Below, piece by piece: positions 34,685-38,596 of a DNA stretch of 38,596 nucleotides. The translations under genes and the position numbers were made by a program. Within the stretch, counting starts at the first letter, position 1; every line of letters starts with the position of its first letter. Below the pieces are notes generated by a model. It ran no database searches. It saw nothing but the letters and a program-made list of their open reading frames with translations, and was not told where the DNA came from. Origin of the DNA: Corallococcus exiguus (GTDB lineage: Bacteria; Myxococcota; Myxococcia; Myxococcales; Myxococcaceae); assembly GCA_012985245.1 (NCBI GenBank), contig JABELA010000052.1:1-38596 (forward strand), read 5' to 3'.

Positions 34685-35650
34685 ATGGTCAACGTGAGGC
34701 AGGTCGCGACGCGGCTGAAGAGTGCGTTCCTGGCGGACCCGGAGCGCTTCTATACGAACGAGACAGGGGCCTGGGTGGCGGGGATGCCGGCGCCGAGCGA
34801 CATCCGGGTGACGACGGGCCGGGAGCCCTTCTGGATCAACCTGGGCTACTGGAAGCACGTGGAGAAGGTGGACGACTCCAACGTGGAGCGCGTGGGGGAG
34901 CTGTTCCGGTCCGCCCAGGCGGAGATGGCGCGCCTCCTGGCGAGGACCGCGAAGCTGGGGCCTGGGGATGCCGTCTTGGACTGCGGCTTCGGGTACGCGG
35001 ACCAGGACCTGCTGTGGGCGGAGGAGTTCAAGCCCGCGAGCATCGTCGGGGTGAACATCACGCCGAACCAGGTGAAGGTGGGCCGGGAGCGCGTGAAGCT
35101 GACGGGGCTGGAGGGCGTGGTCCGGCTGGAGGTGGGGAGCGCGACGGCGCTGCCGGGTGCGGGGGCGTTCGACGTGGTGTTCGCGTTGGAGTCCGCGATG
35201 CATTTCCGGATGCGGCAGGACTTCCTGCGCGAGGCCTTCCGGGTGCTGAAGCCGGGAGGCCGGCTGGTGATGGCGGACATGGCGCAGAAGACGGACCGTG
35301 AGGCCGGAGCAGGACTCCGAGCGCGGCTGCGCTACCGCTACTGGCGGGGACTGATTGCGTTTCCGGAGGAGAACGTCTGGTCGACGGAGCGCTACCGGGA
35401 GGAGCTGCGGCGGGCGGGGTTCCAGGACGCGACGGTGGAGTCCATCGCGGAGGATGTGTACCCGGCGGTGAACACGGCGCTGGTGGCGCTGCGGGGCATG
35501 ACGCAGCTGGAGAGGCAGCCGGGGAGCACGTCCCTGCACCAGGTGCGCGCGGACGTGCACAAGGCGATGCGGATGACACCGGAGCAGCTCCAGTGGCCCG
35601 CGCTGTTCAACTGCGATGAGTACGCCGTGGTGTCCGCGCGCAAGCCGTGA
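34685..35650 (+). CDS. Class I SAM-dependent methyltransferase
   Basis: Motif I VLDCGFGYADQD. Motif post-II/III ...FDVVFALESAMHF...LKPGGRLVMAD. Confidence 0.8.
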   Translation: MVNVRQVATRLKSAFLADPERFYTNETGAWVAGMPAPSDIRVTTGREPFWINLGYWKHVEKVDDSNVERVGELFRSAQAEMARLLARTAKLGPGDAVLDCGFGYADQDLLWAEEFKPASIVGVNITPNQVKVGRERVKLTGLEGVVRLEVGSATALPGAGAFDVVFALESAMHFRMRQDFLREAFRVLKPGGRLVMADMAQKTDREAGAGLRARLRYRYWRGLIAFPEENVWSTERYREELRRAGFQDATVESIAEDVYPAVNTALVALRGMTQLERQPGSTSLHQVRADVHKAMRMTPEQLQWPALFNCDEYAVVSARKP

Positions 35651-35690: not shown

Positions 35691-35790
35691 GCGGTAGGGC
35701 CTCCGGACCTGGTGGCCGGCCCGGTCTTCAAAACCGGTGAGGGGCTGCGAGAGCAGTCCCTGGCGAGTTCGATTCCCGTGCCCTACCGCC
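35691..35790 (+). tRNA. selC: tRNA-Sec (selC-like, anticodon UCA) with long variable arm
   Basis: Acceptor arms gcggtaggg / ccctaccgc. Anticodon stem-loop ccggt-cTTCAaaa-ccgg closely matches E. coli selC GGACTTCAAATCC. Long extra arm ggggctgc-gaga-gcagtccc (E. coli: GGGGCCGC-CA-GCGGTCCC). T-loop gagTTCGATTccc. Total length ~100 nt. Exact ends are ±3 nt. Confidence 0.7.
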
Positions 35791-35879
35791 ATGTTTTCCT
35801 TGGGGTTTTCTGACGCGGCCCTGATCGGGTTGCGAGGCGCCCTGCCCTCCCTTACCTCTCGTACCCAAGTTCTACCCAA

Positions 35880-37046
35880 ATGAGGGGGTACGGGCCGCGT
35901 ATGCCGAAGTGGAGCGGGAAGTGGATCGGGGGCCGCACGTACACGGCCACCGACGGAAGCACGCGCTGGATCATCCGCAAGACCGTCGCCGGGGTCGCGC
36001 ACAACGTCACGCTGGACGTGCGGAGCGAGGCCGAGGCACTGGCCGAGCTGGCGGCCTTCCGCCGCAACCCGGTCGCGTACCGGACCGCGAGCCAGGAGCG
36101 CCAGGACGAGGCCCAGCAGGCCCAAGAGGACGCCGCGCAGGCGGTGTTCCTGGACGAGGATCGCGCCCGGCGGTTCCTCCAGCACCTGAAGGCCAGCGGC
36201 AGGTCCGTCGAGTACCTGAAGAGCACGCGCAGCTACCTGGCCGCGTGGGCAACGGCGCTCATGGGCAAGGACCTACGCGTGGTGACCGGACCGGCGTTGA
36301 AGAAGATCCTGGCCACCTGGGACACCGGAAAGAAGTGGAGAATCATCGTGTTCAAGTCCTTCACCTCGTTCCTACTGGACGCGGGCGAGTTGGACCCGAT
36401 GGTGAACCCCGGGCGCTTCCTGAAGGTCCCCCCTGCCCGTCGAAACCACGAACTCAAGGGCTACAGCATCGAGCACGTCCAGAAGCTCTACGCGGCCCTC
36501 GGCTCGCAGGCCATCCGCGACGTGCTGTGCCTCCAGGCCAAGACCGGAATGCACGGCACCGAGGTGGACCGGCTCGCGAGCGGTGACGGAAAGATCACGG
36601 CGTTGAAGGACCAGGGCGAGATCGCAGCCACCGTCACGTTCAAGCACAAGACCGGGAAGCGGTTCACCTTGTCGCTCGATACGCAGGGGCTCGCCGCCGC
36701 CCAGCGCCTTCAAGCCCGGGGTTCAGCGCCGGATCGGCAGACCATCCGTGAGGCCGTGGAGCGAGTGTGCGCGCGCACGGGCCTGGAGTTCGTTCACTTC
36801 GGCGCGATCCGGCACAGCTTCGCAACATGGCTGGTCGAGCGAGGCAGCCTTTACAACCCGCAGGGCGGCGGCCTCTCCCTGGAAGCCGTAGCCCAGGCGC
36901 TCAACCACAGCAGCACACGGACCACGGCCCTCCACTACGTCAGCGCCACAGTGCCGCCGATGTACGTCGTCCCCATCTGCCTGGCGCATCCAGCCGATCC
37001 AGTGACGCTGCGCATCGTACAGGCCCAGGCGCTTCAGTCCGAATGA
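35880..37046 (+). CDS. int: Tyrosine-type site-specific integrase (phage integrase family)
   Basis: C-terminal catalytic domain with R...HxxR (IRHSFATWLVERG) and a Tyr nucleophile region (LNHSSTRTTALHYV). The N-terminal SAM-like/arm-binding region is present. The gene sits 90 nt downstream of the tRNA-Sec 3' end. Confidence 0.9.
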   Translation: MRGYGPRMPKWSGKWIGGRTYTATDGSTRWIIRKTVAGVAHNVTLDVRSEAEALAELAAFRRNPVAYRTASQERQDEAQQAQEDAAQAVFLDEDRARRFLQHLKASGRSVEYLKSTRSYLAAWATALMGKDLRVVTGPALKKILATWDTGKKWRIIVFKSFTSFLLDAGELDPMVNPGRFLKVPPARRNHELKGYSIEHVQKLYAALGSQAIRDVLCLQAKTGMHGTEVDRLASGDGKITALKDQGEIAATVTFKHKTGKRFTLSLDTQGLAAAQRLQARGSAPDRQTIREAVERVCARTGLEFVHFGAIRHSFATWLVERGSLYNPQGGGLSLEAVAQALNHSSTRTTALHYVSATVPPMYVVPICLAHPADPVTLRIVQAQALQSE

Positions 37047-37173
37047 GACACCGCACCGTCCTTTGGTTGCCTTGACAGTGTTCTGACCACTCTTACGTTG
37101 GCGTGCCAGCGAGCATGCCGCCCGGTGGCTTTGACTTTGGACCTACTGGCTCCTCGGGAGCCCCGGAGGAGCT

Positions 37174-37965
37174 ATGCGTTTGATTCAGAGATTCCTCGAC
37201 CTGCTGTCCGGCGAGGAAGTGCCACTGCCGCTGCGAGCGCTGGGCATCACACGCGACCAGATGCGGTTCTTGAGGGTCGAGGCCGAGAAGGCGGCGGCAA
37301 TGCCGCCACGCGTAGCGCTAATCGGCGAGACGGGTGTGGGCAAGTCCACGACCATCAATGCCCTTTTCAATGCAGGGCGCCCGGTGAGCCACACCGAAGC
37401 CTGCACCCAGGAGGCGCACGAATCCCGCTACACCGGCTCCAAAGGAGAAATCGTTGTCGTGGACATGCCCGGCATCGGTGAGGACACGGAGGCGGACAAG
37501 GTGCACCTCGACACGTACCGGCGCGTCCTTCCCACCGTGGACGTTGTGCTGTGGGTGTTCAAGGCCGACAACCGCGCCATCGCCAACATTCAGCGCGTGT
37601 TGAAGGTGCTGGTGGATGAGAGCGTCTTGAACCCGAAGCACTTGGTCATTGGACTTAATCAGGTGGACCTGCTTCAGCCCGGAGAGTGGAACTCGCTCAT
37701 CAACTTGCCCTCGGCGCAGCAGGAAGAGTCCATTCATGCGCGCACCCGGGACATCGAGGCGAAGCTGGGACGCGCATGCCCCCTACCGGCCGGACGGGTG
37801 GTGCCCTACTCGGCGACGAAGGCATACGAAACGGACCGCCTCTTCCATGCGATGCTTGATGCCTGTGACCGTAAGCGTCAGTGGGCATTGTTTGAGCGCG
37901 CAGACTGCGCCGACTTCACCACCCTTGTGGACCCCAACCTGCTGAAGCTGGCGGCTGGAAACTAG
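37174..37965 (+). CDS. YeeP/YfjP-like small GTPase (MMR_HSR1 / 50S-ribosome-binding-GTPase fold) of integrated islands
   Basis: G1 GETGVGKST. G3 DMPGIGE. G4 NQVD. The ~260-aa size and the integrase-adjacent position are typical of the E. coli prophage YeeP/YfjP/YkfA family. GC is noticeably lower than in the host genes. Confidence 0.8.
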   Translation: MRLIQRFLDLLSGEEVPLPLRALGITRDQMRFLRVEAEKAAAMPPRVALIGETGVGKSTTINALFNAGRPVSHTEACTQEAHESRYTGSKGEIVVVDMPGIGEDTEADKVHLDTYRRVLPTVDVVLWVFKADNRAIANIQRVLKVLVDESVLNPKHLVIGLNQVDLLQPGEWNSLINLPSAQQEESIHARTRDIEAKLGRACPLPAGRVVPYSATKAYETDRLFHAMLDACDRKRQWALFERADCADFTTLVDPNLLKLAAGN

Positions 37966-37977
37966 GAGCGCACGATC

Positions 37978-38193
37978 ATGTCCTTTTCCGATGACGAGAA
38001 CGTCAAGCGCTTGCGCCAAGGGCTCGATCAACGCAGCCAGTGGCGGATCAAGAACGAAGAGATAGCAGCGAACTCCATCACCGACTTCCTGATGGATCTC
38101 ATTCGACCATTCGTGAAGGAAGTTGCCCAAGCTGCGGTCTCAGCCTTTAGCGGCTTCATCGATTGGCTCCGAGGGCTCTTTGCCAAGAAGTAG
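37978..38193 (+). CDS. Small protein with C-terminal amphipathic/hydrophobic helix (hypothetical, 71 aa)
   Basis: RBS AGGAGC 8 nt upstream. It lies 12 nt after the GTPase stop, so translational coupling is possible. The C-terminus VAQAAVSAFSGFIDWLRGLFAKK looks membrane-interacting. Low GC. Confidence 0.45.
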   Translation: MSFSDDENVKRLRQGLDQRSQWRIKNEEIAANSITDFLMDLIRPFVKEVAQAAVSAFSGFIDWLRGLFAKK

Positions 38194-38332
38194 CGCGGCA
38201 CCCACCAGAATCCACCGGCCTTGGGTGGCGAAGTGCTCGGGGAGCTGAAGCAATTTTCTCCCCGAGTTGCTTTCACCCCAGAGGCTCATGGCTATTCTTA
38301 TCTGCCCTTGGCACGAGGTGCGGGCGGCTCAC

Positions 38333-38362
38333 ATTTCCGGAGAGTATATGGATTTAGAGTAT
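38333..38362. repeat. Perfect 15-bp tandem direct repeat (gagtatatggattta x2) in AT-rich intergenic DNA
   Basis: Read directly from the sequence; local GC is ~35–40% against a ~70% background. Confidence 0.8.
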
Positions 38363-38379
38363 ATGGATTTAATGGCCCT

Positions 38380-38459
38380 CAAGGATAAGAGCGCCTAACA
38401 AAAGTAAGGACTGGAGCGGCTTCCCAGAGGGACGGTGCCCCTCTGAAGGGACTTTTGTT
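38380..38459. repeat. ~80-bp imperfect palindrome with 17-bp perfect arms (gagcgcctaacaaaagt / acttttgttaggcgctc) and nested inner inverted repeat
   Basis: Arms read directly. The inner cttcccagaggg / ccctctgaaggg pairing is also visible. This could be an IS end/target structure, a terminator or a small RNA. Confidence 0.6.
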
Positions 38460-38500
38460 AGGCGCTCTATGGGCCTGCTCCGGTTCGGTGGACAGGTTGA

Positions 38501-38596
38501 CTACGCTGCCAGCCTCTTGGTTGCGGCCCTCCGCTCGTATTCCACTGGGCTGACGTAGCCCAGGGCGGAGTGGCGCCGCTTCCGGTTGTAGAACAC
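38501..38596 (-). mobile_element. 3' end of IS3-family transposase gene (orfB, DDE/rve C-terminus), truncated by window edge
   Basis: The reverse complement of 38501–38596 translates to VFYNRKRRHSALGYVSPVEYERRAATKRLAA*. The FYN(R/H)xRxHSxLGYxSPxE(F/Y)E signature is the conserved C-terminus of the IS3/rve integrase core. Confidence 0.6.

Follow-up and report, generated by a model that had tools for sequence, protein, structure and literature searches.

GTPase switches are found in conflict systems such as Eleos and DO-GTPase/GAP1. Eleos, a known anti-phage defence, is centred on the dynamin-like GTPases LeoA and LeoBC and has been linked to the eukaryotic GIMAPs (PMC13276650). The DO-GTPases carry N-terminal zinc ribbons and are paired with a large three-domain (N/M/C) GAP1 protein (Kaur et al. 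2020, PMC7159879). In the eukaryotic, tail-anchored septin-clade proteins GIMAP2 and Toc34, the G domain is followed in cis by a C-terminal hydrophobic or amphipathic membrane-targeting helix, and the EAD-type adaptors are small, non-catalytic, alpha-helical domains that occur in several copies per locus, one being fused to the NTPase and others to effectors (Kaur et al. 2021, PMC8195603). In the present study, we analysed a putative GTPase gene and the small gene that follows it near the 3' end of contig JABELA010000052.1 of Corallococcus exiguus (assembly GCA_012985245.1); the whole stretch of 38,596 nucleotides (nt) is called the window. The GTPase is designated G and its small helical partner S.

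The nearest named relatives of G are Escherichia coli YfjP and a GTPase of Col plasmids. YfjP, YeeP and YkfA of the CP4-type cryptic prophages and the Col-plasmid GTPases are, like G, cargo of mobile elements without an assigned function. An original prediction, made from the window alone, had described the pair as a YeeP-like GTPase with a translationally coupled amphipathic peptide and had noted that no function was assigned to the YeeP/YfjP family; in agreement with the latter point, our literature search found no functional study of YfjP, YeeP or YkfA. The prediction had further proposed a GTPase sensor with a pore-forming effector acting in abortive infection. We examined the conservation, selection, sequence features and neighbourhoods of the two genes. 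We found that G and S have been kept side by side in at least eight phyla and that S founds a protein family that carries no annotation.

Results

Conservation of the gene pair

At four close GTPase homolog loci, in four different genomic contexts, a gene for 60-71 amino acids (aa) lies 12-14 nt downstream of the GTPase gene. When the GTPase alignment was used to scan 185,579 GTDB species, each represented by a single genome, 80 loci were obtained; 153 stretches were confirmed by tblastn, and the counts are a lower bound because the scan was pattern-limited. The loci belong to Myxococcota, Cyanobacteria, Actinomycetota, Bacillota, Bacteroidota, Chloroflexota, Acidobacteriota, Alpha- and Gammaproteobacteria and, in Archaea, Thermoplasmata/Methanomassiliicoccales. 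In nearly all of 84 related loci (numbered with the prefix L below), small open reading frames (ORFs) of 60-123 aa abut the GTPase gene on the same strand. Relative to the GTPase stop codon, their starts range from -35 to about +80 nt, with offsets of -4 to +14 nt being common.

A jackhmmer search started from the S of the window, against the flanking ORFs together with 2,112 six-frame decoy ORFs of these loci, converged on a single family, and at least one S was detectable in 65 of the 84 loci. All but one of the significant matches among the "decoys" were plus-strand ORFs directly flanking the GTPase, either second or third tandem copies or ORFs immediately upstream. A hidden Markov model (HMM) built from eight myxobacterial S proteins detected the archaeal S at an E-value of about 1e-9, and S homologs were also found beside the GTPase in low-GC Bacillota and cyanobacteria. 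The original prediction had stated that it would fall if the small ORF were not conserved beside homologous GTPases; the co-occurrence was strongly positive, and the two-gene module was upheld.

S is often duplicated, and in most lineages its place is downstream of G. In nine loci, mostly alphaproteobacterial, S lies upstream of G (L050, L053, L056, L058, L064, L065, L066, L070 and L076), which indicates that the linkage of the two genes is independent of their order; where S lies upstream, the genes downstream of G are of unrelated housekeeping types. Two copies of the cassette were found in one metagenome-assembled genome (MAG; L008 and L054). In the Bacteroidota loci, two or three divergent proteins of 107-146 aa ending in W-x-x-x-L-F fell below the HMM threshold (E 0.07-0.8).

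Comparison of the window with the orthologous cassettes of L001, L006 and L007 gave ratios of nonsynonymous to synonymous divergence (dN/dS) of 0.02-0.14 for G and 0.17-0.42 for S, with a synonymous divergence (pS) of up to 0.61 in S. This purifying selection, together with the conservation beside homologous GTPases across phyla, shows that S is a real gene. In the window, the gap between the two genes is 12 nt and S has its own ribosome-binding site, as originally predicted (Table 1). The two genes are tightly coupled or transcribed together.

The cassette also moves as a unit: nucleotide homology between unrelated myxobacterial contexts covers the two genes only. In blastn comparisons of the window with L003 and L007, which have different contexts, homology was confined to 37146-38183, that is, to G plus S, and similarity between cassettes was lost downstream of the S stop codon. 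Two syntenic Corallococcus islands, in comparison, aligned with the window from the tRNA gene to about 38280-38320. Upstream of G, the element TTGACA-16 nt-TACGTT (Table 1) is kept in five of six myxobacterial cassettes from different genomic contexts and may function as a promoter; a generic scan for sigma-70 promoters and terminators made no call on it and found nothing convincing in the locus. The hairpin in the 5' untranslated region (UTR) is likewise kept in five of six cassettes, with equivalents of varying loop and stem in L001, L003, L004 and L007; it could control translation or mRNA stability.

The GTPase

G has the sequence hallmarks of a P-loop GTPase of the TRAFAC class: G1, the switch-I Thr, G3, G4 and G5 are all present. 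The G1, G3 and G4 motifs were complete, as the original prediction had read them (Table 1), and are conserved in homologs. Among 60 homologs, no variation was seen at G51, G54, G56, K57, T78 (switch I), D97, P99, G100 and N162, while D165 and Y212-S213-A214 (G5) are nearly invariant. Since these residues are so conserved, G is probably a catalytically competent GTPase.

In the AlphaFold2 model of G (predicted local distance difference test score, pLDDT, 91.2), a single G domain is preceded by a helical extension at the N-terminus and followed by a bundle of helices at the C-terminus. Its Foldseek neighbours were the HflX-like SsGBP, LeoA, GIMAP2, Toc34, Era, Irga6 and EngB, at template-modelling scores (TM-scores) of 0.43-0.58, with no specific structural match among them. 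Pfam likewise matched G only with generic families (MMR_HSR1, AIG1, FeoB_N and Dynamin_N), and the profile of the G family also matched IRG, GIMAP and Toc chains. G was rejected as Era or Der (EngA), because the best NCBIfam scores were 46 bits for Era, where the cut-off is 237, and 40 bits for Der, where it is 307. Other ribosome-assembly GTPases were rejected as well; G has one G domain with helical extensions, not a KH domain or tandem G domains.

The similarity of G to YfjP-type proteins is clearly above that to generic G domains of the Era/Der type. E. coli YfjP was 35% identical over 145 aa in BLASTP (E 2e-23) and scored 72.2 bits in phmmer, and the GTPase of the Col156 plasmid pLR-06-4 scored 102.8 bits, in comparison with 37.4 bits for the best PDB chain (Der). 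The YfjP, YeeP, YkfA and Col-plasmid GTPases share with G the ACT of switch I, DxPGxGE and LW.(I/F)KADxRA. On these similarities, G appears to belong to a poorly studied clade around YfjP, so that the label "YeeP-like" was appropriate as a statement of distant relationship.

The small partner

In window S, a charged N-terminal helix is followed by the element N-S-I-T-D-F-L; after a kink at IRPFV comes an amphipathic C-terminal helix, whose last residues are WLRGLFAKK. The C-terminal segment FSGFIDWLRGLFAKK is present as originally quoted. The family as a whole is recognised by a charged N-terminal helix, a [ST]-x-x-[ST]-[FL]-x-x-[WF]-[LIV] element and a variable amphipathic or hydrophobic C-terminal part, which ends in W/F-x-x-L-F(G) in many lineages. 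Its family-wide conservation sits in the polar N-half motif, not in the hydrophobic tail, and the conserved charged helix with S-x-x-S-F-x-x-W looks more like a docking or partner module. In a single-sequence AlphaFold2 prediction, S was one helix (residues 5-68, pLDDT 76), a model that is uninformative on partners.

We used a mean Kyte-Doolittle hydropathy of about 1.6 over 19 residues as the threshold for a transmembrane helix. The most hydrophobic 19-residue segment of window S reaches 0.97 and contains D and R inside the helix, and nine of 85 family members reach 1.6. S1 proteins of Bacillota and Actinomycetota have polar, basic C-terminal tails, and the cyanobacterial S1 and Bacillota S2 paralogs have hydrophobic stretches resembling G-x-x-x-G-x-x-x-G. 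Window S therefore does not look like a Hok/TisB-type toxin or a holin, because no transmembrane helix is predicted. Thus the amphipathic C-terminal helix of the original prediction was confirmed (hydrophobic moment 0.6-0.7), but its assignment to the membrane-depolarising toxins was not.

Pfam, NCBIfam, PHROGs and PADLOC contained no family matching window S, Pfam contained none for seven diverse relatives, and a PDB sequence search with the S profile gave only noise (E 0.14 or worse). A word-indexed protein search retrieved two clusters with window S alone and 34 with the family alignment, all hypothetical. An exhaustive profile search of 1.84 billion representatives retrieved 66 clusters, which indicates a family of small size or one that is difficult to detect. 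In the databases, S was named "hypothetical protein" wherever it was found.

Relation to the tails of YfjP-type proteins

The enterobacterial YfjP-type proteins are single chains of 287-337 aa, 25-75 aa longer than window G, and have no adjacent S gene. Their tail ends in W-x-[FW]-[FI]-F(G), whereas window G, with 263 aa, stops before such a tail (...LLKLAAGN). The tails end in ...PAPVRTIIQAVRSSVVSVARAVWDFFF (YfjP), ...ARSLWGFFFG (Klebsiella aerogenes) and ...AGNAWDHFFG (pMTY18781-2), and the S proteins in ...IRPFVKEVAQAAVSAFSGFIDWLRGLFAKK (window), ...VVDWFWKFFG (L011) and ...SWLQKFFG (L002). In hhalign, the YfjP-type tails aligned end-to-end with S at a score of 17.3 (P 0.0067); column shuffles averaged 9.2 ± 2.1, and one of 200 reached 17.3. 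This similarity is suggestive only that the YfjP-type tail and S are split and fused versions of one tail. An S-like "MSxxEF...SxxxFxxWL" motif was also seen at the C-terminus of GTPases of 300-364 aa, where only one instance beat all 2,400 shuffles; an S-like N-half motif on long GTPases is thus a weak lead.

The genes that follow differ as well. DUF932 (YfjQ) follows yfjP in E. coli K-12 and lies nearby in K. aerogenes, whereas in the window DUF932 is absent and S is followed by sequence related to insertion sequences (IS). On the mobilisable Col156 plasmid pLR-06-4 (L087, E. coli, 4,820 bp), the 293-aa GTPase is the only annotated cargo-like gene, the other four coding sequences being rep, mob and two hypotheticals. 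On pMTY18781-2 (L099, E. coli), a 337-aa homolog has a WYL-domain regulator on one side and, on the other, a 261-aa protein whose N-terminus resembles a signal peptide.

Architectural variants

The gene order of the operon is G-S1-S2 in Cyanobacteria, Bacillota and Actinomycetota. In S2 (about 135-145 aa), an S domain is preceded by an N-terminal domain of about 75 aa that contains several CxxC pairs and resembles a zinc ribbon; the single S2 examined (L021) had no Pfam match. The motif PFPxCxxC...HRxC...CxxC...FYCSCG occurs in L020, L021, L028, L030, L031, L036, L037, L046, L051 and L068, and in these loci S2 is the second gene after the GTPase. A further fusion was found in P0198 (438 aa), in which an S domain (residues 7-88) is joined to a C-terminal TIR domain (TIR_2, E 2.5e-18). 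The S domain of P0198 is of the type found upstream of the GTPase, and the protein ends in an S-like W-rich tail, GWWNWMKSLFAR.

All-versus-all clustering of the neighbours found no universal third gene, only lineage-specific partners: an NB-ARC/nSTAND1-like gene in 22 cyanobacterial loci, a second GTPase paralog and a transmembrane protein in Bacteroidota. The cyanobacterial gene lies about 1.5 kb upstream on the opposite strand, is divergently transcribed and encodes a P-loop protein of about 450 aa, in which a helix-turn-helix (HTH)-like region is found at the N-terminus (L014-L029, L038, L039, L045, L048, L068, L078 and L080-L082). In other lineages, G-S adjoins large nSTAND5 or NACHT proteins (L089, L091 and L101). 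The association of this GTPase with STAND NTPases is recurrent. Two tandem GTPase paralogs occur in some cyanobacterial and Bacteroidota loci. In the Bacteroidota operons of L072-L074, L077, L079, L083 and L084, a transmembrane protein and a tandem pair of GTPase paralogs are encoded together with two or three helical proteins of 107-146 aa ending in W-I-x-x-L-F; these operons probably represent the same system in a very divergent form. In a deltaproteobacterial subgroup, with a GTPase about 51-53% identical to window G, an upstream gene abuts or overlaps the GTPase start (Table 1) and encodes a protein of 239-248 aa that combines an Xre-type HTH with a long helical region and has a hydrophobic C-terminus.

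Neighbouring genes

Genes for defence, toxin-antitoxin systems or mobile elements were found in about nine of 14 annotated contexts. For the island of the window and L001, these are an integrase, a DUF3854/DUF5906 primase-like gene and an Xre regulator. An AAA_15 ATPase neighbours the cassette in L003 and a PLD-like gene in L004. One locus has a DEAD/MZB helicase, HNH and nSTAND5 nearby, another a type II CBASS and ImmA, and another AbiEii and nSTAND5. An archaeal locus reads G-S-RelA_SpoT with NACHT, PDDEXK and a methyltransferase; a Gloeocapsa plasmid locus has GIY-YIG, an integrase and RES, and a Burkholderia plasmid locus has DndB and an antirestriction gene. In CP4-57, yfjP comes after rnlAB and abpAB. 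In Cystobacter fuscus, the cassette is flanked by a LysR regulator and a xanthine-dehydrogenase-like gene, without an integrase. The original prediction had stressed cargo near an integrase: the reading as island cargo held for the window, and several relatives lie by CBASS, AbiE, STAND NTPases, RnlAB/AbpAB or Dnd, but integrase proximity is not a family trait, since the Cystobacter locus and others have no integrase. The association with defence is circumstantial.

Comparison with described systems

Like the anti-phage system Eleos, G-S is centred on a GTPase. PADLOC models of LeoBC (2e-10) and LeoA (8e-10) matched the G domain, and the LeoA structure was among the top Foldseek matches. However, Leo proteins have about 560-600 aa with dynamin-type helical stalks, in contrast to the 263 aa of G and a 71-aa helix as its partner. 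The PADLOC matches were limited to part of each model (positions 79-241 of 601 and 50-157 of 559), and the locus has neither a Leo-type gene nor a second large GTPase gene; Eleos was therefore rejected.

G-S resembles the DO-GTPase/GAP1 systems in having a TRAFAC GTPase switch beside a system-specific partner and, in some loci, tandem GTPase paralogs; these systems also have often membrane-proximal components, variable effectors and small alpha-helical adaptors (PMC7159879). This identity was rejected too: the N-terminus of G is without Cys clusters, there is no adjacent GAP1 protein, and no DO-GTPase or GAP1 Pfam model was among the matches listed for G or S up to E = 1. In the G-S family, it is the S2 partner, and not the GTPase, that has a Cys-rich domain.

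GIMAP2, Toc34 and IRG proteins share the G-domain fold with G (TM-scores of about 0.43-0.58), and GIMAP2 and Toc34 share with G-S the concept of a G domain plus a membrane-targeting C-terminal helix. They are eukaryotic, however, with the tail in cis, and their sequence similarity to G is limited to the generic G domain. The several S paralogs per locus and the fusions of S to TIR and Cys-rich domains recall the EAD-type adaptors, the case for an S copy on the GTPase itself being weak; unlike them, S is matched by no Pfam family and hence by no EAD or Death-like model. S appears to be none of the catalogued adaptor or toxin families. By analogy, G-S would work most like the conflict systems that combine a GTPase switch with an adaptor (PMC7159879, PMC8195603) and like the tail-anchored GIMAP and Toc34 proteins. 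No described defence system with this architecture was found in the literature.

Layout of the locus

The 3' end of the window has the order tRNA-Sec, tyrosine integrase, G and S (Table 1). The tRNA-Sec gene, selC in E. coli nomenclature, is a classic integration site of islands in enterobacteria, and it is presumed to be the integration site of this island. Corallococcus sp. AB004 has the same layout and the same junction (a DUF3857/transglutaminase-like gene, methyltransferase, integrase, G and S); further along its island lie a DUF3854/DUF5906 primase-like gene and a gene for an Xre regulator. From position 35600 of the window, C. interemptor shows collinearity.

Downstream of S, the window contains a perfect tandem 15-nt repeat (two copies of AGAGTATATGGATTT at 38341-38370), a perfect 18-nt inverted repeat (AGAGCGCCTAACAAAAGT / ACTTTTGTTAGGCGCTCT, 45 nt apart, within 38388-38468) and the C-terminal end of a transposase-like ORF (..FYNRKRRHSALGYVSPVEYE.., 38501-38596, minus strand), which runs off the contig. 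As the synteny with the sister islands ends close to these repeats and this ORF, the island was probably truncated by an IS-like element.

Table 1. Features of the locus in the window and the upstream gene of the deltaproteobacterial subgroup
Feature	Position	Strand	Basis or remark
tRNA-Sec	35693..35791	+	ARAGORN; Rfam RF01852 at 70.5 bits; context, outside the module
Tyrosine integrase	35880..37046	+	PF00589 at 5.6e-8; context, outside the module
Promoter-like element: TTGACA (37072-77), 16-nt spacer, TACGTT (37094-99)	37072..37099	+	About 75 nt 5' of the GTPase start
5'-UTR hairpin GGCTCC-TCG-GGAGCC, 6 bp, abutting the GTPase Shine-Dalgarno	37148..37162	+	Read from sequence
GTPase Shine-Dalgarno GGAGGAG	37165-37171	+	Read from sequence
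GTPase (G), 263 aa	37174..37965	+	Pfam MMR_HSR1 at 1.8e-16
G1/P-loop GETGVGKST (aa 51-59)	37324..37350	+	Motif read and homolog alignment
G3 DMPG (aa 97-100), then family-conserved G102 and E103	37462..37473	+	Motif and alignment
G4 NQVD (aa 162-165), then family-specific PGxW...NLPS..Q insert (aa 169-183)	37657..37668	+	Alignment
Shine-Dalgarno AGGAG of the S gene	37964..37968	+	Overlaps the GTPase TAG stop (37963-37965); 9 nt before ATG
Small partner (S), 71 aa	37978..38193	+	dN/dS and family linked to homologous GTPases
Xre-HTH upstream gene	L100 7252-7998; L101 7285-8004; also L008, L011, L054		

Discussion

We propose that in G-S a GTPase switch works with an obligate helical partner, which serves as an adaptor or targets it to the membrane, and that the two are encoded in a self-contained, horizontally mobile operon that is probably conflict cargo. 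In our judgement, this proposal could about equally prove right or wrong. G would be the nucleotide-dependent switch, and S would bind it through the conserved charged helix and the S-x-x-S-F-x-x-W element. The amphipathic C-terminal helix of S would then direct the complex to a membrane or perturb it, and S may correspond, as a separate protein, to the hydrophobic C-terminal tail of the YfjP-type, GIMAP and Toc34 GTPases, which have it in cis. In the larger variants, S-type modules would dock the Cys-rich, zinc-ribbon-like domain, the TIR domain and extra S paralogs. The biological role may be conflict, either as defence against phages and mobile elements or as an addiction-like function; such a role seems the most likely one because of the position as integrase-island cargo and the recurrent neighbours (STAND NTPases, CBASS, AbiE, RelA/SpoT-like genes, Dnd and plasmids).

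Several observations weigh against this proposal. The similarity between the YfjP-type tails and S is marginal, with an hhalign probability of 5.7%, and hmmsearch of the S HMMs against the tails of YfjP and the Col-plasmid GTPases gave no significant match (p 0.01-0.09 in comparison with shuffles). The contigs of the S-TIR fusions (L093-L095, 2.6-4.8 kb) carry no GTPase, and the physical interaction between G and S is a suggestion from gene linkage and weak fusion evidence. The 146 sampled non-redundant flanking ORFs were heterogeneous and included many housekeeping genes; about 10 of them match PADLOC models, a figure without a background control, and the Cystobacter locus is without a mobile-element or defence neighbour. 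The G family is also nearly absent from phage collections. A scan of IMG/VR with the GTPase alignment gave no confirmed relative, and tblastn against 50,697 phage records gave four weak matches (23-32% identity), so that a phage origin of the cassette is unsupported.

A bolder form of the proposal would make G-S the minimal form of an unrecognised, prokaryote-wide, GTPase-centred immune or conflict system. In it, S as a "split tail-anchor" would couple a septin/GIMAP-like switch to the membrane and to accessory modules (a zinc-ribbon sensor, a TIR effector and STAND partners), and YfjP, YeeP, YkfA and the Col-plasmid GTPases would be fused single-chain versions. We regard this form as doubtful.

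The structural neighbours of G could also be taken in another way. Dynamin-like LeoA, the tail-anchored Toc34 and GIMAP2 and the septins would suit a physiological GTPase of membranes outside any conflict, active in remodelling or repair or in developmental signalling of filamentous or social bacteria, with S as its anchor. Several loci flanked by housekeeping genes, and an impression of many filamentous or multicellular hosts (Myxococcota, Nostocales, Oscillatoriales, actinomycetes and Hyphomicrobiaceae), are in line with such a role. However, the distribution is sporadic (at least 153 stretches among the 185,579 species), close strains differ in context, and the cassette, which is part of an integrase island in the window, is carried by plasmids at other loci. 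Accessory genes, and not those of core physiology, show such features, and a purely physiological role is unlikely.

The effector model of the original prediction, in which G senses infection and releases or activates S as a small pore-forming, membrane-depolarising toxin that causes abortive infection, draws on the amphipathic C-terminal helix of S, rich in small residues, on the GxxxG-like stretches of the cyanobacterial S1 and Bacillota S2 paralogs and the nine members with transmembrane-level hydropathy, and on the several loci in defence or mobile-element contexts. Against it, window S and most of its relatives stay under the hydropathy threshold, the S1 tails of Bacillota and Actinomycetota are polar and basic, and the part of S conserved throughout the family is the polar N-half motif. 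The fusions of S to TIR and Cys-rich modules also fit an adaptor better than a toxin. We consider a pore-forming S quite unlikely.

G-S might instead be a toxin-antitoxin or addiction cassette without a dedicated anti-phage role, in which one product inhibits growth and is neutralised by the other, and the two together stabilise the island or plasmid that carries them. The compact operon of two overlapping or closely spaced genes, the variable gene order, the patchy and mobile distribution with two copies in one MAG, the presence on plasmids including a 4.8-kb Col plasmid, and the Xre-type HTH gene coupled upstream in one subgroup would all agree with this. On the other side, family and PDB searches found no recognisable DNA-binding or antitoxin fold in S, and the single-gene enterobacterial relatives do not fit a two-partner logic unless the tail acts in cis. 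GTPase toxins are not known as an established toxin-antitoxin class. A plain addiction cassette of this kind is very unlikely.

Finally, many spurious ORFs overlap the G-S region in other frames of this GC-rich DNA, but that the 71-codon ORF arose by chance and the GTPase alone is real is refuted to near certainty by the selection on S, its cross-phylum homologs beside the GTPase, its ribosome-binding site and its annotation as a gene in public records (HJC10_11025).

Conclusions

If G-S is ordinary accessory physiology, the main gain from this study would be the correct annotation of a conserved small gene that pipelines call hypothetical. If it is a functional unit, S would represent a new protein family with no Pfam, NCBIfam, PHROG or PADLOC entry, and the pair a compact GTPase cassette spanning eight bacterial phyla and the Thermoplasmata archaea. 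It would then be a minimal addition to the GTPase-switch conflict systems, such as Eleos and DO-GTPase/GAP1, that parallel the eukaryotic GIMAP and IRG proteins. The pair would also offer a handle on YfjP, YeeP and YkfA of the E. coli cryptic prophages, whose tail may act as an S in cis for membrane targeting or partner docking; for experiments on this point, the GTPases of pLR-06-4 and pMTY18781-2 are convenient entry points in E. coli.

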